DNA of 64,000 nucleotides from an uncultured Roseivirgaceae bacterium (GCA_964532595.1 CAZHIQ010000011.1:5249-69248); one strand, 5' to 3'. Positions 4,788-32,053 are shown, counted from the stretch's first letter. The notes: generated by a model not told the origin, from the sequence alone. Numbers and translations: made by a program.

Positions 4788-5999
4788 ATGGCTGACGAAA
4801 GCATTATTCATACTTCAGACGCGCTCGAAGAGCGGCAGTACACGACGTTGAACCTGGGGCCCACCCACCCGGCTACGCATGGAATTTTCCAGAACGTACT
4901 TACCGTGGATGGCGATGTTATCATCGACTCGGAGCAAACCGTTGGATATATCCACCGCGCGTTTGAAAAACTTGCAGAACGACGCCCGTTCTACCAGATT
5001 ACTCCGATCACCGACCGCCTTAACTATTGCTCAGCACCGATCAACAACATCGGCTGGCACATGACGGTTGAAAAGCTGATCGGCGCCGAAATACCAAAGC
5101 GCGTCGATTATCTGCGTGTCATCATCATGGAACTCGCGCGGATTTCCGACCACATTATCTGTAATTCCGTTATTGGCGTCGATACCGGGGCATTGACCGG
5201 CTTTGTGTACATGTTTCAGTACCGCGAGCTTATTTACGAAATTTACGAGGAAATTTGCGGTGGCCGGCTGACAACCAACATCGGGCGTATCGGCGGATTT
5301 GAGCGCGATTTCAACCAGACAGCCTGGACCAAGATTGACAAGTTCCTGAAAGAATTTCCCGAAGCACTCACTGAGTTCGAGAAACTGGTGAAACGCAACC
5401 GTATCTTCATGGACCGGACGATCGGGTCGGGGGCAATCTCTGCGGAACGTGCTCTTAGCTACAGCTTTACGGGTCCTAACCTGCGCGCGGCCGGCGTCGA
5501 CTACGACGTACGGGTTATGAACCCCTATTCCAGCTACGAGGACTTTGATTTCATCGTTCCGGTCGGCCTCCACGGCGACACGTACGACCGGTTTATGGTA
5601 CGCCAAGAAGAGATGTGGCAAAGCTTGAGCATTATCCGTCAAGCGATTGAAAAGCTACCCGACGGTCCACATTACTCACCGAACGTACCCGACTTCTATC
5701 TGCCTCCCAAAGAAGAAGTCTACAACAACATGGAAGCGCTTATCTACCACTTCAAGATCGTCATGGGTGAGACCGACGTTCCGAAGGGTGAGGTTTACCA
5801 TAGTGTTGAAGGAGCGAATGGAGAACTCGGTTACTATCTGATCAGCGATGGTGGACGTACACCGTTCCGCCTGCACTTCAGAAGACCGTGTTTTATATAT
5901 TATCAGGCGTTCCCTGAAATGATTCGCGGCTCCAATATCTCCGATGCGATTATTACTATGAGTAGTATGAATGTGATCGCAGGGGAATTGGATGCATGA
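4788..5999 (+). CDS. nuoD: NADH-quinone oxidoreductase subunit D
   Basis: LNLGPTHPATHG, GYIHRAFEK, GDTYDR, EGANGELG, VIAGELDA. Confidence 0.97.
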   Translation: MADESIIHTSDALEERQYTTLNLGPTHPATHGIFQNVLTVDGDVIIDSEQTVGYIHRAFEKLAERRPFYQITPITDRLNYCSAPINNIGWHMTVEKLIGAEIPKRVDYLRVIIMELARISDHIICNSVIGVDTGALTGFVYMFQYRELIYEIYEEICGGRLTTNIGRIGGFERDFNQTAWTKIDKFLKEFPEALTEFEKLVKRNRIFMDRTIGSGAISAERALSYSFTGPNLRAAGVDYDVRVMNPYSSYEDFDFIVPVGLHGDTYDRFMVRQEEMWQSLSIIRQAIEKLPDGPHYSPNVPDFYLPPKEEVYNNMEALIYHFKIVMGETDVPKGEVYHSVEGANGELGYYLISDGGRTPFRLHFRRPCFIYYQAFPEMIRGSNISDAIITMSSMNVIAGELDA

Positions 6000-24844: not shown

Positions 24845-24913
24845 TTGGGTTATTTTGCGCGCAATCTATCATAGACGGCTGCCGATTCCGTTTTACTGTT
24901 GCAGACGATGTGT

Positions 24914-24921
24914 TATATTTG
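24914..24921 (+). promoter_or_regulatory. -7 promoter box TATATTTG (bamD operon)
   Basis: TAnnTTTG 7 nt before ATG 24929. Confidence 0.55.
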
Positions 24922-24928
24922 CGGGCTT

Positions 24929-25741
24929 ATGCGGAGACTATCAGCACCTGTTTCGTTAATTCTCCTGCTGCTTGTCGTTACGGCGTGTAGCAAGTTTAGA
25001 AAAATCGAAAAAAGCCAGGACTGGCGTGTCAAGTACGAGGCGGGAATCAATTACTACAACAAGGAAGACTATTACCGGGCTTCTGTGTTGTTTGAGCAGA
25101 TTTTGCCTATCGTTCGCGGCTTGCCGGAAGGGGAAAAGGTTCAGTTCTACCTGGCGTACTGCCAGTTTCATGACAAACTTTATCTCTTGGCCTCCGAGCA
25201 GTTCAAGACGTTTTATGAGACGTATGGACGCAGTGAACTGGCGGAGGAGGCCCGCTTTATGCGTGCCTATTCGCTATATCGCTCCTCGCCAAATCCCAAC
25301 CTCGACCAGACTTCGAGCGTGGATGCCATGGCAGCTATGCAGCAGTTCATAAACCGGTATCCGAACAGCAAATTCAGAGACCGGGCGGTTGAAGTGATCG
25401 AGACTGCCCAGCACAAATTGGAGAAGAAGGGTTTTGAGAATGCACGCCAATACTACAAGATGCGTCTTTACAAGGCAGCTGTAGTGGCGCTCAACAACTT
25501 CAAACAGAATTTTCCTGATTCGAAATACGTTGAAGAAGCATATTATCTGGCAGTTGTTTCGCAGTTTCGGCTCGCAGAACAAAGTTTGCGCTCCTTACAG
25601 GCGGAACGGTACCAGGCTGTCGTCGATCAATATTTGGAATTCCTCGAGCGTTATCCGGACAGCAGTTTCCTGAAAGACGCCGAGAAACTCTATGCGGAGA
25701 GCCTGGAGAAAGTCAATTCATTTAAAGTAGCAAAATCTTAG
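24929..25741 (+). CDS. bamD: Outer-membrane assembly lipoprotein BamD
   Basis: Lipobox VTAC, TPR-like helices, LDQT, FINRYPNS; synteny with rpoZ-coaBC. Confidence 0.92.
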   Translation: MRRLSAPVSLILLLLVVTACSKFRKIEKSQDWRVKYEAGINYYNKEDYYRASVLFEQILPIVRGLPEGEKVQFYLAYCQFHDKLYLLASEQFKTFYETYGRSELAEEARFMRAYSLYRSSPNPNLDQTSSVDAMAAMQQFINRYPNSKFRDRAVEVIETAQHKLEKKGFENARQYYKMRLYKAAVVALNNFKQNFPDSKYVEEAYYLAVVSQFRLAEQSLRSLQAERYQAVVDQYLEFLERYPDSSFLKDAEKLYAESLEKVNSFKVAKS

Positions 25742-25746
25742 AAACC

Positions 25747-26067
25747 ATGGCAGTACAATCATCTGTAATCACACGCGACCTCGATAAAATAGCTGCTCCC
25801 ACCGGGAATATTTATCAGTCGGTTGTCGTAATCGGTAAGCGTGCCCGGCAGATTTCAACCAATCTTAAAGAAGAGTTGAACAACAAACTTGCTGAGTTTG
25901 CCACGACCGTCGATAACCTGGAAGAGGTGTTCGAAAACCGGGAACAGATCGAAATCTCGAGATTTTATGAAAGGTTGCCTAAACCGACAACGACAGCTAC
26001 GGAGGAATTCCTGGAAGGAAAACTGAACTTCAGAATGCGCTCCGAGCTTGACGAAACGCTTGAGTAA
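25747..26067 (+). CDS. rpoZ: RNA polymerase omega subunit (Bacteroidota type)
   Basis: TGNIYQSVVVIGKRARQI, VFENREQIEISRFYERLPKP. Confidence 0.9.
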   Translation: MAVQSSVITRDLDKIAAPTGNIYQSVVVIGKRARQISTNLKEELNNKLAEFATTVDNLEEVFENREQIEISRFYERLPKPTTTATEEFLEGKLNFRMRSELDETLE

Positions 26068-26119: not shown

Positions 26120-27319
26120 GTGCTTGAAAACAAGAAAATAGTGGTCGGTGTTACCGGCAGCATCGCGGCGTATAAATCGGCGATGCTGGTGCGGCTCCTC
26201 GTGAAGGCAGGTGCCCAGGTGCGCGTGGTAATGACTTCCGATGCCCATGCTTTTATTACTCCCCTGACTTTGTCCACTCTGTCCAGAGAGCCTGTTTGGA
26301 CAGACTTCGTCAGGGACGAATCCGGTCAGTGGAACAACCACGTTGAGTTGGGTTTGTGGGGTGATGCTTTGGTGATTGCACCCGCCACCGCGAATACGAT
26401 CGCAAAAATGGCGCACGGCCTCTGTGACAACCTTCTCATGGCCGTCTATCTCTCTGCGCGATGTCCGGTATTTGTCGCTCCGGCGATGGATCTCGACATG
26501 TTGCAACATCCTTCCACCACAAAAAACATCGAAGCCCTTCGCTCCTACGGCAACAGGATAATTGATCCCGGATACGGAGATCTTGCAAGCGGGCTCACCG
26601 GCACAGGCCGAATGGCCGAACCCGAGGAGATCGTTGGCGAGCTATCGTCATTCTTCCGCAGAAGTCAGCGTTTGTCGGGTAAGAGGGCCCTCGTAACTGC
26701 AGGGCCTACAAGGGAGGCGATCGACCCCGTCCGTTTTATCAGCAATCACTCCAGCGGTAAAATGGGGTATGCTGTGGCAGAAGCGCTGGCTGCAGCGGGC
26801 GCCGAGGTCGTCCTGGTCAGCGGTCCCACGGAACAGCGCATACACCACCCGTTAGTAAAGGTAGTCCCCGTTGTCACGGCACGCGAAATGCTCGAGGCCA
26901 GTGAGCGGGAATTTGAAAACACTGACATCGCCGTCCTTTCCGCCGCTGTAGCCGACTACCGGCCCACACATACCGCCACCCAAAAAATCAAGAAATCGGG
27001 AGAGTCCCAGACTCTGTCCCTGACGCGAACTGACGACATCGCCGCCACACTTGGCAAAAGAAAGCGAAATGGCCAGGTAGTGGTGGGATTTGCCCTTGAG
27101 ACCGACAACGAAGAATCTAACGCCCTCGCAAAGTTAAGGGCGAAGAATTTCGATCTTATTGTCCTGAATTCGCTAAGAGACGAGGGGGCCGGCTTTGGCT
27201 ACGATACAAATAAGATCACCCTCTTTGATGGCGAGAAGAAGTCCACCTTTCCGCTGCAATCGAAGAAACAGGTGGCGTATGATATTGTCGACGCGATAAT
27301 TGAACGGAATCATGCGTAA
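26120..27319 (+). CDS. coaBC: Bifunctional phosphopantothenoylcysteine decarboxylase/ligase
   Basis: GVTGSIAAYK, APATANTIAK, PAMDLDM, TAGPTREAIDPVRFISNHSSGKMG, VGFALET. Confidence 0.97.
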   Translation: MLENKKIVVGVTGSIAAYKSAMLVRLLVKAGAQVRVVMTSDAHAFITPLTLSTLSREPVWTDFVRDESGQWNNHVELGLWGDALVIAPATANTIAKMAHGLCDNLLMAVYLSARCPVFVAPAMDLDMLQHPSTTKNIEALRSYGNRIIDPGYGDLASGLTGTGRMAEPEEIVGELSSFFRRSQRLSGKRALVTAGPTREAIDPVRFISNHSSGKMGYAVAEALAAAGAEVVLVSGPTEQRIHHPLVKVVPVVTAREMLEASEREFENTDIAVLSAAVADYRPTHTATQKIKKSGESQTLSLTRTDDIAATLGKRKRNGQVVVGFALETDNEESNALAKLRAKNFDLIVLNSLRDEGAGFGYDTNKITLFDGEKKSTFPLQSKKQVAYDIVDAIIERNHA

Positions 27320-28205
27320 CGTAGCCCTGTTCCTTTTCTTATCGTTGCCATTCACGGCCTGGTGTCAGGAATTGAATTGTTCGGTCGCCATTAACGCATC
27401 GCAGGTGCAAACCTCTGAACGCGCCATTTTCGATGACCTCAAGAACGCCATCGAGCAGTTTATGAACACCCGGAAGTGGACCAACGATGTCTACAAGCAA
27501 CATGAGAAGATCGCTTGCAACCTCCTGATTACTATCACCCGGATGCCAAGTATCGGTACCTTCACCGCGTCGGTCCAGATTCAGTCAGCACGCCCCGTGT
27601 TTAACAGCACTTATACAAGTTTGCTGCTGAACTTCGCTGACCGGGACTGGGAATTCGACTATGTAGAGGCAATGCCTCTGGAGTACAACGACAATACCTT
27701 TACTAATAACCTGACCTCGATGCTGGCGTTCTACGCCTATCTGATCATTGGCTTCGATCATGACTCATTCAGCGAACTTGGAGGAACTCCGTACTTTCAA
27801 CGCGCGATGCAAGTGGTCAACAACGCCCAGCAGTCCGGTCACGCAGGGTGGCAAGCGCTCGGCAGCAATAGAAACCGCTACTGGATCATCGAGAACCTCA
27901 TCAATCAACAAATGGTGGGCATCCGGCGCGCGATTTATCAGTATCATCGCCATGGCCTCGATATGTTCCAGTCGAATCCCGATGAGGGCCGCCAGAAGAT
28001 TCTCGACGGACTAAAAGAAATCAAGAAAGTTCGCGATATCAATCCGAGTGCGATCCTGGTTGTCAGTTTCTTCGATGCAAAAGGAAAGGAACTTGCAGAC
28101 ATCTTTTCCGACGGCAACATCCAGATCCGCCGCCAGGCGTACGATATTGTAACGGCCATCGATCCCTCTAACCGGTCGATGTACGACAAAATCATTGCCA
28201 ATTAG
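27312..28205 (+). CDS. porD: DUF4835 family / T9SS protein PorD
   Basis: Signal peptide then QELNCSV, FMNTRKW, ARPVFNSTY, NLTSMLAFYAYLIIG, NRYWIIEN; typical position between coaBC and recN. Confidence 0.85.
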   Translation: MRNVALFLFLSLPFTAWCQELNCSVAINASQVQTSERAIFDDLKNAIEQFMNTRKWTNDVYKQHEKIACNLLITITRMPSIGTFTASVQIQSARPVFNSTYTSLLLNFADRDWEFDYVEAMPLEYNDNTFTNNLTSMLAFYAYLIIGFDHDSFSELGGTPYFQRAMQVVNNAQQSGHAGWQALGSNRNRYWIIENLINQQMVGIRRAIYQYHRHGLDMFQSNPDEGRQKILDGLKEIKKVRDINPSAILVVSFFDAKGKELADIFSDGNIQIRRQAYDIVTAIDPSNRSMYDKIIAN

Positions 28206-28251
28206 CCGCGCGCCTGTGCGCTCTGCTATCGATACCCAAACATTCAGCGTT

Positions 28252-28476
28252 ATGGCCACACGCCAGTTAAGACTGACTACCCTACAAGAGATACGTGAAA
28301 AACTCGGCGCACATACAGGAAAAAAAATTAATATTGTTCTTCGTGACCGAACCGTATTTTACGGGAAACTGAAGGAAATCCAGGCAACGCATCTTGAGTT
28401 TGTGAACCTGAGAAACCGCAGTGAAAAACTTCCGTTGGATACGATCAGTGAAGTTTACCTCGATTCGAACCAGTAA
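28252..28476 (+). CDS. Hypothetical 74-aa protein with an Sm/LSm-like sequence pattern
   Basis: MATRQLRLTTLQEIREKLGAHTGKKINIVLRDRTVFYGKLKEIQATHLEFVNLRNRSEKLPLDTISEVYLDSNQ; TAATG overlap with recN supports it being translated. Confidence 0.75.
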   Translation: MATRQLRLTTLQEIREKLGAHTGKKINIVLRDRTVFYGKLKEIQATHLEFVNLRNRSEKLPLDTISEVYLDSNQ

Positions 28477-30137
28477 TGCTAAGGCGTCTGACCATAAAGA
28501 ACTACGCGCTTATCCAAAGCCTGGAGATGGAGCCTTCGGGACACCTGAACGTGATTACAGGAGAAACCGGCGCCGGAAAGTCTATTATGCTCGGAGCAAT
28601 CGGGCTTCTGCTGGGCAACCGGGCTGATACAAAGGTGTTGTGGGATGATCAGGAAAAGTGCATCATCGAAGGTACCTTCAACATCGACGCCTACGAGCTT
28701 AAACCCCTGTTCGAAGAACTTGATCTCGACTATGCCAACGAGACCTTTATTCGCAGGGAAATCAGTCCCGGTGGAAAATCGCGGGCCTTTATCAATGACA
28801 CGCCGGTGACCCTGGATGCCTTACGACGGGTAGGCGGGCGTCTGATGGATGTACACTCCCAACATGAAACACTGGAACTCGGCAACCAGTCTTTTCAGTT
28901 GCATCTGATCGACAGTTATGCGGGCAATGCCAAGATCAAAGGTTCGTACGAACAAGCGTGGAAGAACTTCTCCGCGGCGCGGAAGAAATTTGAGAAACTG
29001 AGTGAGGAAGCTAACCAACTCGGAGAAGAAGCCGACTACGTAAATTTTCAGCTCGAAGAGCTCATAGAAGCCCGTTTGGAAGAAGACGAACTTGAAAAAC
29101 TCGAACAGGAACTAAAAGTAGCCGAACACGCCGAGGAGATCAAAGTCCGGCTTCAGAGCACTTCTCAACTGCTGAACGAATCCGAGTTCTCGGTGTCCCG
29201 GGCTCTCGCAGAAGTAAAATCACATCTTCAGACAATTGCCTCCTGGTCGAAACAATACGAAGGTCTGCTGCAACGGCTCGAGACCGCACGGCTCGAAATT
29301 GAGGACCTCGGTGATGAGATCAGCCGTGAGGAAGATAGGGTCGAATTTGATCCGGAACGGGCAGAGTGGGTGAAACAACGCCTGAGCACCCTCTATCATC
29401 TGATGACCAAGCATCGCGTTAATGATACCGCCGCACTGCTTCAGTTACAGGCTTCACTTTCCGAGAGAGCACAGCTCACGGGTAACGTCGATGGCGCCCT
29501 CGCGGACGCACAGGAAAAACTGAGAGAAGCGGAGAAAGTCTTATTGCAATCTGCCACGGAACTGCGCGCCACACGCCAGAAGGCCTTCGCTCCACTCCAG
29601 AAACAAATCACCGCGCTCCTGAAAGAACTCGGCATCCCGAACGCCACACTGGATATCGAATTATCAGAAACCACACCCGGCCCAAGTGGTGCCGACCGCA
29701 TCGATCTGCTTTTCAGCGCCAACAAAGGAGTGCCTCCTCGTCCCCTCGCACAGGTGGCGTCAGGTGGCGAGTTCTCCCGACTGATGTTTTGTGTAAAGTA
29801 CGTGATGGCTGAAAAAACGGCGATACCTACCCTCGTCCTGGACGAAATCGACAACGGCATATCAGGAGAAATCGCTATCCGGCTCGGACAACTAATGAAG
29901 CTCATGGCGCGGAAGCACCAACTGATAACCATCAGCCACCTCCCGCAGATCGCGGCACAGGGAGACACTCACTACTTTGTTTACAAAGACAATACAGCTA
30001 AGAAAACAGTTAGTTCAATCCGCCTGCTTAGCGAAAGTGAACGGATCGAGGAAATTGCCAAAATGATCGGAGGAAATAATCCCTCGCGCATAGCCCTCGA
30101 AAATGCACAGGAACTGCTGAGCGGAGCAGCTCAGTAA
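28476..30137 (+). CDS. recN: DNA repair protein RecN
   Basis: TGETGAGKS, FINDTP, HSQHE, coiled coil, ASGGEFSR, LDEIDNG, ISHLPQIAA. Confidence 0.97.
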   Translation: MLRRLTIKNYALIQSLEMEPSGHLNVITGETGAGKSIMLGAIGLLLGNRADTKVLWDDQEKCIIEGTFNIDAYELKPLFEELDLDYANETFIRREISPGGKSRAFINDTPVTLDALRRVGGRLMDVHSQHETLELGNQSFQLHLIDSYAGNAKIKGSYEQAWKNFSAARKKFEKLSEEANQLGEEADYVNFQLEELIEARLEEDELEKLEQELKVAEHAEEIKVRLQSTSQLLNESEFSVSRALAEVKSHLQTIASWSKQYEGLLQRLETARLEIEDLGDEISREEDRVEFDPERAEWVKQRLSTLYHLMTKHRVNDTAALLQLQASLSERAQLTGNVDGALADAQEKLREAEKVLLQSATELRATRQKAFAPLQKQITALLKELGIPNATLDIELSETTPGPSGADRIDLLFSANKGVPPRPLAQVASGGEFSRLMFCVKYVMAEKTAIPTLVLDEIDNGISGEIAIRLGQLMKLMARKHQLITISHLPQIAAQGDTHYFVYKDNTAKKTVSSIRLLSESERIEEIAKMIGGNNPSRIALENAQELLSGAAQ

Positions 30138-30142
30138 GACCG

Positions 30143-32053
30143 CTAGCGCGATTTCTGCAACCTCGACGCGTCATCATAGACCAGAACCCCTTCGTCAACC
30201 ATCTCGCGCACTGCGTCGACAAACAATTCACTATCAGCGGGGTTAACAGCTTTTTCCAACTGGTCGATGGTGAGCGATTTTCCGTCTATGATCTTCAATA
30301 TGATCTCGCGTATCGTCTTAAAAGCACCTTGATTCTCACTACGTCGTTTTGAAATGCACACATCGCAAATTCCGCAGGTTACCTCTGTGTGTTCATTAAA
30401 ATAGTCCTGCATAACCTGCATGCGACAACGGAACGACTGGGTTGCATACTCAGTCATAGCGTTCATCTTGCCAAAAATGAGCTCTCTCCGCATCTCCAGC
30501 CGCTGAATGTCAAGCGGAAGGTGGTCTACATCCTGACGGGGAATAACAAAAGTAACCTGAGGTCGTTCATTTGAGGGCGTGTACACAAGTATTCGAAGCT
30601 CATGCAGATGGTTCAACATCTCGACGACCACCGGTCGTGATACCTTGAGTCCTTTGGCAATCAACGCTTCATCTATCCGTGCAAAAGAGGAGAAAATCTC
30701 ACCGCCATACAGCCTTAGCAACGTCTTGATAATGGGATCAAAGCGGGCATTAGCGACCTGAAACTCATAAAGGCGCGTGCTGTCCACAAGCACCTGCACG
30801 GCCGACGGGTTAAAGAAACTCTCATTGAAATGAATCAAGCCCTCCTCTTCCAACTTTCGCAGACCATTAAATACTTCTACAGGAACAAGTCTGAAGCGAT
30901 CGCAAAACTCGTGCATATCAAAATCGAAACTCTCCCCTTCGGCGCTTCCGACAGCAATCTGATAGTGGTTGGCCAGGCTTTGATAGAGCACCCGAAGGTA
31001 CTCAACCGGAGGTTGCGACTGCTTTACTTTTGCCTCCAGGCTGGAAACGTCGGCTTCCTGATACAATACTGCCGCGTAAGCACGCAAACCATCGCGTCCG
31101 GCGCGTCCCGCCTCCTGATAATAAGATTCAAGGTTCTCAGGTAAATCCAGATGAACGACCAGTCGGACATCGGGCTTGTCAATACCCATTCCGAATGCAT
31201 TGGTCGCCACCATGACCCTTGTCCGATTTTGAATCCAGTCGTCCTGCCTCCGCGTACGCTCTTCGAACGTCAAGCCTGCATGATAAAACGATGAGGGGCA
31301 TTGATGCCGTTGCAACCAACCTGCGAGCTCTACGGTCGCTTTCCTGGAGCGAACATAAACGATAGCACTTCCGGGTACCTTGCGCAGAATATCCAGCAAC
31401 TTTTCGCCTTTGTTATCGGTCTTGCGAACAACAAACGAAAGATTATCGCGAGCAAATGACTTCCGGAAGAATGCATAGCCTTCAGCGAATCGCAACTTCT
31501 CGGCAATATCCGTTTGCACTTGAGCCGTCGCGGATGCCGTGAGCGCTATTACCGGAACGTCGGGAACAAGATCGCGCAGGGTTGCTATTTGCAGGTAGGG
31601 CGGACGAAAGTCATAACCCCATTGGGAAATACAGTGGGCCTCATCAACGGCGATAAGGCCGACTTTCATCTGTTTGAACCGGGCGATGAAGAGTTCGGTC
31701 TGCAATCGTTCGGGCGACACGTAGAGAAACTTCGTATCCCCGTAGATCGCATTGTCGAGCAGGAGATCGATCGCGTCCCGCCTGAGCCCCGAATGGATGG
31801 CCACAGCTGGAATGCCCCTCCGTCTGAGTTGTTCAACCTGATCCTTCATCAGGGCAATCAGAGGAGAAACAACAATGCAGATTCCATCGCGCAGCATCGC
31901 GGGTACCTGAAAGCATACCGATTTCCCTCCCCCTGTAGGAAGAAGGGCAAGGGTATCTTTTCCAGACACTACAGCGTTAATAATTTCTTCCTGCAGAGGT
32001 CGGAAGTGCTCGTACCCCCAATATTTCCTGAGAACGGATAATGGTGTCTCCAC
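30143..32053 (-). CDS. recQ: RecQ-family ATP-dependent DNA helicase
   Basis: PTGGGKS, VDEAHCISQWGYDFRP, ATNAFGMGIDK, QEAGRAGRDG, CRMQ...CGICDVC Zn site. Confidence 0.95.
   Translation of the reverse strand: METPLSVLRKYWGYEHFRPLQEEIINAVVSGKDTLALLPTGGGKSVCFQVPAMLRDGICIVVSPLIALMKDQVEQLRRRGIPAVAIHSGLRRDAIDLLLDNAIYGDTKFLYVSPERLQTELFIARFKQMKVGLIAVDEAHCISQWGYDFRPPYLQIATLRDLVPDVPVIALTASATAQVQTDIAEKLRFAEGYAFFRKSFARDNLSFVVRKTDNKGEKLLDILRKVPGSAIVYVRSRKATVELAGWLQRHQCPSSFYHAGLTFEERTRRQDDWIQNRTRVMVATNAFGMGIDKPDVRLVVHLDLPENLESYYQEAGRAGRDGLRAYAAVLYQEADVSSLEAKVKQSQPPVEYLRVLYQSLANHYQIAVGSAEGESFDFDMHEFCDRFRLVPVEVFNGLRKLEEEGLIHFNESFFNPSAVQVLVDSTRLYEFQVANARFDPIIKTLLRLYGGEIFSSFARIDEALIAKGLKVSRPVVVEMLNHLHELRILVYTPSNERPQVTFVIPRQDVDHLPLDIQRLEMRRELIFGKMNAMTEYATQSFRCRMQVMQDYFNEHTEVTCGICDVCISKRRSENQGAFKTIREIILKIIDGKSLTIDQLEKAVNPADSELFVDAVREMVDEGVLVYDDASRLQKSR

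Follow-up and report, generated by a model that had tools for sequence, protein, structure and literature searches.

The sm gene and its junction with recN

The 64,000-nucleotide stretch of DNA analysed here, referred to as the window, comes from an uncultured Roseivirgaceae bacterium (GCA_964532595.1 CAZHIQ010000011.1:5249-69248) and contains, between porD and recN, a small open reading frame (ORF) that we call sm. This ORF is a genuine protein-coding gene under purifying selection. For its product, a basic protein of 74 residues, an Sm/Hfq-like fold is predicted with good confidence. It runs from ATG at 28252 to TAA at 28474-28476 (74 codons, MATRQLRL...YLDSNQ; full protein sequence, MATRQLRLTTLQEIREKLGAHTGKKINIVLRDRTVFYGKLKEIQATHLEFVNLRNRSEKLPLDTISEVYLDSNQ), and the last A of the sm stop codon also opens the recN ATG (28476-28478). 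The encoded protein has an isoelectric point (pI) of 9.8, with 13 lysine or arginine residues against 9 aspartate or glutamate residues, and the median pI of its family is 9.6. An earlier note on this DNA, made from the sequence alone, had described a basic 74-residue ORF whose TAA overlaps the recN ATG (TAATG) within the series bamD-rpoZ-coaBC-porD-recN; the ORF and the overlap are confirmed, as is the setting, through Pfam and NCBIfam matches.

All homologues of sm open with M-x-T-[RK]-Q-x-R at the equivalent methionine, and the true start is therefore the ATG at 28252. Longer versions of the ORF, namely 93 residues from a TTG codon and 86 residues in the public gene call P0001, are unsupported by the starts of the relatives, none of which uses the upstream TTG/GTG chosen in that gene call. 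Public gene calls begin sm too far upstream (28195/28216 vs. 28252; 86 residues in P0001 and 81-118 residues in other clusters). No paralogue of sm was found in the window.

Evidence for a genuine gene

A word-indexed protein search returned 17 relatives of sm, an exhaustive profile search returned 254 representative clusters, essentially all of them stand-alone proteins of 71-77 residues, and a second profile search returned 119 relatives. These proteins carry the label 'hypothetical protein' at NCBI, and some are called 'snRNP-like' or 'RimP' at JGI; the family is previously undescribed and has no Pfam or NCBIfam model. The ORF is open in 40 species-representative genomes, in 38 of which it is exactly 74 residues long, and the same length and the same slot between porD and recN are kept in more than 100 independent loci. 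The ratio of nonsynonymous to synonymous substitution rates (dN/dS, Nei-Gojobori) is about 0.1-0.3; among the least diverged pairs that are not saturated it ranges from 0.03 to 0.39, and its median for 69 pairs is 0.28. The entropy at codon positions 1, 2 and 3 is 1.02, 0.76 and 1.51 bits, i.e., highest at the third and lowest at the second position. In addition, metatranscriptome contigs from four independent runs map onto sm, three of which cross the sm-recN junction. The coordinates of the gene, of its parts and of its neighbours are collected in Table 1.

Table 1. Features of the sm locus (positions counted from the first base of the window; residues numbered in the sm protein)
Feature	Residues	Position	Strand	Basis or remark
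sm gene (74-residue basic protein with predicted Sm/Hfq fold)		28252..28476, stop included	+	ORF, family, selection, AlphaFold2, Foldseek
TAATG, sm stop/recN start overlap by one base		28474..28478	+	window sequence
beta0, extra N-terminal strand	4-8	28261..28275	+	DSSP on both models
N-terminal alpha-helix of the predicted Sm fold	11-21	28282..28314	+	both AlphaFold2 models
Five-stranded bent beta-sheet (predicted Sm/SH3-like barrel)	25-72	28324..28467	+	both models
beta1	25-30
beta2	35-43
beta3	47-52
beta4	57-61
beta5	65-72
AAAAAAATTAATATTG, synonymous-site conservation block, codons K24-I28	24-28	28321..28336	+	codon comparison across loci
N52-(M/L)53-R54 family signature, end of beta3/loop 4	52-54	28405..28413	+	91-93% conserved
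E67-x-Y69-x-D71 invariant acidic/aromatic signature, beta5	67-71	28450..28464	+	E67, D71 100%; Y69 91%
porD-sm spacer, 46 nt		28206..28251	+	without terminator or recognisable promoter in this genome
porD (DUF4835, type IX secretion), invariant upstream neighbour of sm		27300..28205	+	NF052317 (T9SS_PorD) 1.4e-111; PF16119 6e-109
recN (SMC-like DNA double-strand-break repair ATPase), invariant downstream partner		28476..30137	+	TIGR00634 1.4e-132
bamD/YfiO		24899-25741		PF13525, 2.7e-24
rpoZ		25747-26067		PF01192
coaBC		26120-27319		PF04127 + PF02441
recQ-family helicase gene, convergent with recN		30143-32053	-

The stop codons of recQ and recN lie 5 nt apart in the window, and most related loci also have a recQ homologue no more than a few kb from recN, though its distance and orientation differ. 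Public assemblies hold two population variants here, G>T at 28402, which gives V51L at a variable position of sm, and G>A at 28486 in recN codon 4. Several long-read metagenome-assembled genome (MAG) loci (L004, L020, L023, L029, L037) give split tblastn matches with apparent frameshifts in bamD, coaBC, porD, recN or recQ, and at L037 the sm frame continues into recN; these split matches look like assembly errors rather than pseudogenes.

Predicted fold

Two AlphaFold2 models, built from 17 and 121 sequences, agree with each other (predicted local distance difference test, pLDDT, 87.1 and 86.1) and place an N-terminal helix ahead of a five-stranded bent sheet, with an extra strand, beta0, at the N-terminus. 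Canonical Hfq and Sm proteins do not have such an N-terminal strand. The stretch LQEIREKLGAH, in which the earlier note had seen a helix, is helical in both models, and the Sm-like fold that it had suspected is likewise what is predicted at a pLDDT of 86-87 and what Foldseek retrieves, with RimP C-domain, Hfq and LSm matches. Against the PDB, the best Foldseek match is the C-terminal domain of M. smegmatis RimP (5gl6; template modelling (TM) score 0.70-0.71 over 72-76 columns, with beta0 and the helix covered). After RimP come dozens of further matches, almost solely Hfq chains from more than 10 species, including Synechocystis, Pseudomonas, Listeria, E. coli, Caulobacter, Thermotoga, Aquifex and M. 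jannaschii, together with LSm/Sm chains (TM 0.6-0.76, E ~1e-3 to 1e-2), and the best structural match among the Hfq proteins is that of Synechocystis (3hfo).

Profile comparisons point to the same superfamily. A search of the PDB sequences with the single sm sequence gave only noise, whereas the family profile matches LSm8 (1.4e-4), P. aerophilum SmAP3 (5.9e-4) and M. jannaschii Hfq (0.07), aligning sm residues 16-56 to the first two. Among 121 family members, 40 match Pfam LSM (PF01423) at E<=0.1, with a best value of 1.6e-4, but all of these are sub-threshold and the window protein is unmatched; one relative carries a precomputed PF01423 match. RimP_C (PF17384) is matched by 38 of the 121 members (best 8.6e-6), all below the curated cut-off, the window protein reaching E=1.6e-3 and 19.1 bits vs. 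a cut-off of 26.3. For ROF (PF07073), the window protein gives E=0.024 and 15.2 bits vs. a cut-off of 27.6, and 2 of the 121 members match. Pfam Hfq (PF17209) has no match to the window protein at E<=1 and is not among the 25 families listed for the 121 members. Based on the Foldseek, profile and sub-threshold Pfam matches, sm is therefore assigned to the superfamily of Sm-like/SH3-like barrels, within which it forms a separate family. The RimP-C-like SH3/Sm barrel that the earlier note had given as an alternative is a live possibility.

Residue conservation and the missing Sm/Hfq pocket motifs

Conservation was measured in a sample of loci seeded with PorD, which is unbiased with respect to any motif in sm. 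Twelve residues are at least 90% conserved (Q5, R7, I14, V29, G38, N52, M53, R54, I65, E67, Y69 and D71). Within beta0, R7 is 100% and Q5 95% conserved and position 4 is always K or R; the position of K24 is usually basic, G38 reaches 91%, and position 44, the equivalent of the Sm1 aspartate, is variable. Two signatures, one at the end of beta3 and one along beta5, characterize the family (Table 1). The conserved polar residues thus lie in the beta0 strand, in the turn from the helix to beta1, in the beta3-beta4 turn and along beta5. Those in the beta3-beta4 turn are near what we take to be the positions of the Hfq rim residues.

In Sm proteins, loops 3 and 5 build the uridine pocket, and the same loops form the proximal site of Hfq, for which the Sm2 motif [YF]-K-H-A-[IV] supplies K56 and H57 of the proximal uridine pocket, together with Q8 and F42. 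In the sm family, however, loop 3 (residues 44-46) and loop 5 (residues 62-64) are among the most variable columns, at ~2-3.2 bits, and the Sm2 motif (YKHAI / RG) is absent, there being no RG in loop 5. In the alignment to SmAP3, the column of the pocket asparagine is hydrophobic in sm (L/I48). A comparison by hhalign with four Hfq sequences, which serves as a lead and not as a test, covers the Sm1 half only: sm residues 25-54 are paired with Hfq 21-50 (E=0.032), and the alignment ends before YKHAI. It sets G38 against G34, D/N44 against D40 and N52 against N48, while an invariant valine stands opposite Hfq Y25 and a variable position opposite F42. The columns equivalent to F42, K56 and H57 are the most variable. 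The Sm1-like stretch named in the earlier note appears to be borne out, whereas its Sm2-like resemblance falls in a loop that is unconserved. Since the Sm2 motif is absent and the pocket loops are variable, sm is not an Hfq orthologue, nor is it a canonical Sm member, as judged from the sequences.

Coupling to recN and transcription signals

The junction seen in the window is nearly universal. A 1-nt overlap of the sm stop with the recN ATG occurs in 30 of 38 genome loci; in 6 the two abut, and in 2 a 1-nt spacer separates them. Among the PorD-seeded loci, the two overlap in 49 of 54 and abut in the other 5. In the window, neither the porD-sm nor the sm-recN junction has a terminator-like site.

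In the Chryseolinea clade, 14 of 41 loci (L007, L008, L010, L011, L018, L020, L021, L023-L025, L027, L029, L030 and L037) have a Bacteroidetes-promoter-like motif, TTG-N19-21-CAnnTTTG, with its end 12-20 nt ahead of the sm ATG, as compared with an expectation of 0.19 in shuffles and with 1 of 156 coding controls. The motif occupies the porD-sm spacer, 12-50 nt upstream of the sm ATG (for example, ttggattcat..gatttaggcagctttg), and suggests that sm-recN can be a transcription unit of its own in this clade. The 46-nt spacer of the window is without TTG-N19-21-CAnnTTTG, and sm is therefore probably co-transcribed with porD here. With regard to damage control, recN belongs to the SOS regulon of some Bacteroidetes, and the published LexA/SOS box types of the phylum are CTAA-N5-TTAG and GGA-N5-TCC (PMC8565304). 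Both boxes are absent from the window, and the spacers carry sporadic GGA-N5-TCC only.

Distribution, synteny and probable loss

The named genomes that carry sm are Cytophagales of the NCBI family Fulvivirgaceae (Chryseolinea, Chryseosolibacter, Ohtaekwangia and Fulvivirga), and the remaining carriers are MAGs labelled Cyclobacteriaceae, Roseivirgaceae or Flammeovirgaceae. Across these Cytophagales the gene order is fixed, porD-sm-recN being found in 40 of 40 genome loci and in 6 of 6 protein-seeded loci, including those of the weakest family members and of Fulvivirga. A metagenome scan seeded with PorD provides a sample that is independent of sm itself, all returned loci having at least 62% identity. 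In this sample, 74 loci extend far enough beyond porD; sm is present at 67 of them and absent from 7 (L073, L082, L085, L104, L114, L124 and L125). At three of the latter (L082, L114 and L125), only 60-77 nt separate porD from recN, and at L073 an IS200-like Y1 transposase (PF01797, 4.3e-29) lies between porD, which ends at ~4397, and recN, which starts at 5246.

In a neighbour-joining tree of PorD (one protein, midpoint root), a single clade, nested within the carriers, unites five of the loci without sm, and the deepest branches, Fulvivirga included, carry the gene. This nesting suggests that sm was lost secondarily in one subclade. A search with the PorD of the window gave 3891 matches, of which the best 120 all have at least 73% identity, with no outgroups among these. 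Relatives of sm outside Fulvivirgaceae-type Cytophagales gave no match in three very large protein searches, and solely from this lack of matches we infer that sm is absent from other Bacteroidota. The narrow distribution and the loss in a subclade mean that the phylum-wide Hfq gap of Bacteroidota is not filled by sm. Thus, of the unrecognised Sm-fold factor proposed in the earlier note, the genuine, conserved ORF with a predicted Sm/Hfq-like fold stands, whereas the implied substitute for Hfq is not supported, given the absent Sm2 motif, the variable pocket loops and the narrow distribution. The view that Bacteroidota lack Hfq is not overturned; sm is more likely a helper linked to RecN than the missing Hfq.

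A nearly frozen synonymous block within sm

Inside sm, codons 24-28 (K K I N I; 28321-28335) are written AAA AAA ATT AAT ATT in 29-33 of 33 non-redundant genome loci, and the nearly frozen block reads AAAAAAATTAATATT across diverged orthologues (L001-L127). The same codons have a usage of 0.59, 0.38 and 0.48 in the neighbouring genes of the same loci, and the pair KK, which is AAAAAA in ~94-100% of cases at the block, is so written in 181 of 581 cases (31%) in the neighbouring genes. By contrast, third positions change freely in the codons of the adjacent invariant residues G23, V29 and L30. The 33-locus set was collected with the peptide GKKINIVL, and the bias was re-checked in the PorD-seeded sample, where it holds wherever the residues are kept (K25 AAA in 31 of 33, I28 ATT in 29 of 31 and I26 ATT in 27 of 38); it also persists in the protein-seeded loci. 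Many family members, however, are without both the block and its residues.

The block is unique in the window and is predicted to be single-stranded (loop), and the fold of the region is not significant (z = 0.19). No known RNA family was found around sm at E<=1. An internal Bacteroidetes promoter at the block (TAATATTG compared with TAnnTTTG) was rejected by inspection, as the match fails at one position and a -33 TTG is missing at the appropriate distance. Frameshifting at the A-run would give truncated products of 26 or 39 residues, with no sign of a recoded product. As candidate roles, the block may be a site of RNA-protein contact or of processing, or a run prone to slippage. The run of eight A at 28320-28327 is A7 in one metatranscriptome contig (X30, depth ~4), while the remaining two RNA contigs and all four DNA assemblies (X1, X2, X6, X15, X27, X28) keep A8; A7 in X30 may reflect slippage, an error in sequencing or a difference between strains.

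Possible roles of sm

The reading that we favour, tentatively and as possible rather than probable, is that sm is an accessory factor of RecN that binds single-stranded nucleic acid and/or RecN itself. The stop/start coupling has been kept over saturated divergence, for which the simplest reason is that sm and RecN work together. To our knowledge, Bacteroidota do not rely on Shine-Dalgarno pairing, and recN is therefore most likely translated by termination-reinitiation after sm. One message would then yield sm and RecN in a fixed ratio, as is usual for subunits or partners. The small basic Sm/SH3-type barrel would bind single-stranded DNA ends or RNA and/or dock on RecN during double-strand-break repair, and the conserved surface used for this would comprise R/K4, Q5, R7, K24, N52-M-R54, E67, Y69 and D71, rather than the canonical Sm/Hfq nucleotide pocket. 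Binding of nucleic acid is plausible from the high pI of the family. Since one subclade has lost the gene, sm would be an add-on and not core to RecN function.

Several points weigh against this reading. A contact between sm and RecN is suggested by genomic context, and gene adjacency can be historical; porD is an equally invariant neighbour and is functionally unrelated to recN. The subclade that keeps recN without sm shows that RecN does not need sm. The invariant R7, E67 and D71 could form an internal salt-bridge network and not a binding site. In addition, the depth of the metatranscriptome contigs is low, and DNA carry-over is possible.

A second reading, which we regard as unlikely, is that sm mainly gates the translation of recN through the stop/start overlap, keeping RecN, which would be harmful if over-made, at a low level, and that the protein might feed back at the AAAAAAAUUAAUAUU block. 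The near-universal overlap would be expected under such a role, as would the nucleotide constraint within sm beyond that on its amino acids and the predicted single-strandedness of the block; likewise, no published-type LexA box was found, though recN is SOS-regulated in some Bacteroidetes (PMC8565304). However, an ORF that served coupling alone would not keep a fold, a length of 74 residues and 12 residues at 90% or more at saturated synonymous divergence. Moreover, the nucleotide block is lost in many members, and sm-less lineages express recN from a 60-77-nt spacer.

Somewhat more doubtful is an Hfq-like hexa- or heptameric ring acting as an RNA (or RNA/single-stranded DNA) chaperone, which would be the first Sm-ring riboregulator of Bacteroidota and for which the adjacency to recN would be incidental or specialised. 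The Foldseek matches after RimP are almost all Hfq chains, and the length of 74 residues, the N-terminal helix and the basic pI fit Hfq. The profile matches LSm8, SmAP3 and M. jannaschii Hfq, with the last of which sm shares a 'GKK(I/V)' entry into beta1, and the A/U-rich block in the sm mRNA could be an autoregulatory site. K24/K25 and N52-x-R54 fall at the hhalign Hfq positions 20-21 and 48-50, which presumably lie beside the rim residues R16-R19 and K47. Set against these likenesses, Sm2/YKHAI is absent, the equivalents of F42, K56 and H57 are the most variable, Y25 is replaced by an invariant valine, and the Pfam results listed contain no Hfq match. The extra strand beta0 may also occupy an edge of the sheet that is needed for ring closure, and confinement to one bacterial family with a subclade loss is unlike a global regulator. 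Improbable, too, is a combination in which an Hfq-like ring would bind single-stranded nucleic acid through a non-canonical surface, made of its rim or lateral face and its N-terminal arm, would itself load onto RecN or recruit RecN at DNA breaks, and may autoregulate through the A/U-rich block. If true, sm would be the first protein of Bacteroidota to form an Sm ring, and one dedicated as a cofactor to a repair ATPase of the SMC family.

It is equally improbable that sm is a RimP-C- or Rof-like barrel that serves another machine (maturation of the 30S subunit, or Rho) and is functionally unconnected with RecN. The best Foldseek match is indeed M. smegmatis RimP, covering beta0 and the helix, the RimP_C profile gives the E values stated above for the window protein and its relatives, ROF gives 0.024, and JGI calls some members RimP. 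Nevertheless, all of these matches are below curated cut-offs, ROF is matched in very few members and Rof lies outside the top 50 structural matches, the RimP N-terminal domain and the rimP-nusA-infB context are missing, and the strict coupling to recN would be left unexplained. Finally, a non-functional or mis-called ORF, for which the small size and the 'hypothetical protein' annotation speak and nothing more, is hardly credible in view of the conservation, the dN/dS, the fixed length and the confidently predicted fold.

Returning to the accessory-factor reading, we note that what is new is an uncharacterised family within a known fold, with a very tight association with recN, and that stand-alone bacterial Sm-fold proteins besides Hfq are few. 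The association with RecN is unexpected; against that stand the narrow distribution and a function read solely from context. If true, a RecN-specific Sm barrel would be an added component of bacterial double-strand-break repair. The question is directly testable, since the family is small and well delimited and sm is present in cultured Chryseolinea serpens DSM 24574, C. lacunae, Chryseosolibacter and Fulvivirga.

Comparison with known Sm-fold systems

In the literature searched, neither a recN-coupled Sm-like protein nor a partner in obligate translational coupling with recN is reported, and Bacteroides has been described as being without classical RNA chaperones (PMC11697453). With Hfq, sm shares its size of ~70 residues, its basic character, the predicted N-terminal helix and five-stranded bent sheet (TM 0.6-0.76) and an alignable Sm1 half. 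Unlike Hfq, however, it has no Sm2 YKHAI, its pocket residues are unconserved, it has an extra predicted N-terminal strand and no Pfam Hfq match, and it is limited to one Cytophagales family, where it is always coupled to recN. The Sm/LSm proteins (PF01423; LSm8 and P. aerophilum SmAP3, 1M5Q) are the best sequence-profile relatives of sm, which nonetheless stays below the gathering score and is missing the loop-3 Asn and the loop-5 Arg-Gly of the uridine pocket.

The RimP C-terminal SH3-like domain (PF17384; 5GL6) is the top Foldseek match over nearly the whole of sm. RimP, however, has a two-domain architecture of ~150 residues (PF02576 + PF17384), whereas sm is a stand-alone protein of 74 residues without the N-domain and lies outside the rimP-nusA-infB context. 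Rof/YaeO resembles sm in being a small stand-alone Sm-like barrel, one that binds a ring ATPase (Rho), and there is a weak ROF match to sm; the differences are that only 2 of 121 members match ROF, that Rof is not in the top 50 structural matches and that the genomic context is another.

Two further systems show how an Sm fold may work outside riboregulation. In the DNA-damage regulator PafBC, the WYL domain is a bacterial Sm-fold module, not part of a classical Hfq ring, that has been proposed to be a nucleic-acid-binding ligand sensor, which offers sm a functional analogy linked to DNA damage (PMC6789036). The WYL domain, which carries the WYL motif in beta3, is, however, fused to WCX and helix-turn-helix (HTH) domains, and its beta4/beta5 loop is conserved, whereas sm stands alone and that loop is variable; no WYL match is among the Pfam matches listed for the window protein or the 121 members. 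The Hfq of Synechocystis, in turn, exerts its function while docked to the ATPase PilB1 (PMC4390875). Because of these two precedents, a non-ring, non-riboregulatory role for an Sm barrel is credible, and, if true, sm would be another Sm fold outside riboregulation, beside WYL/PafBC and Synechocystis Hfq-PilB1.

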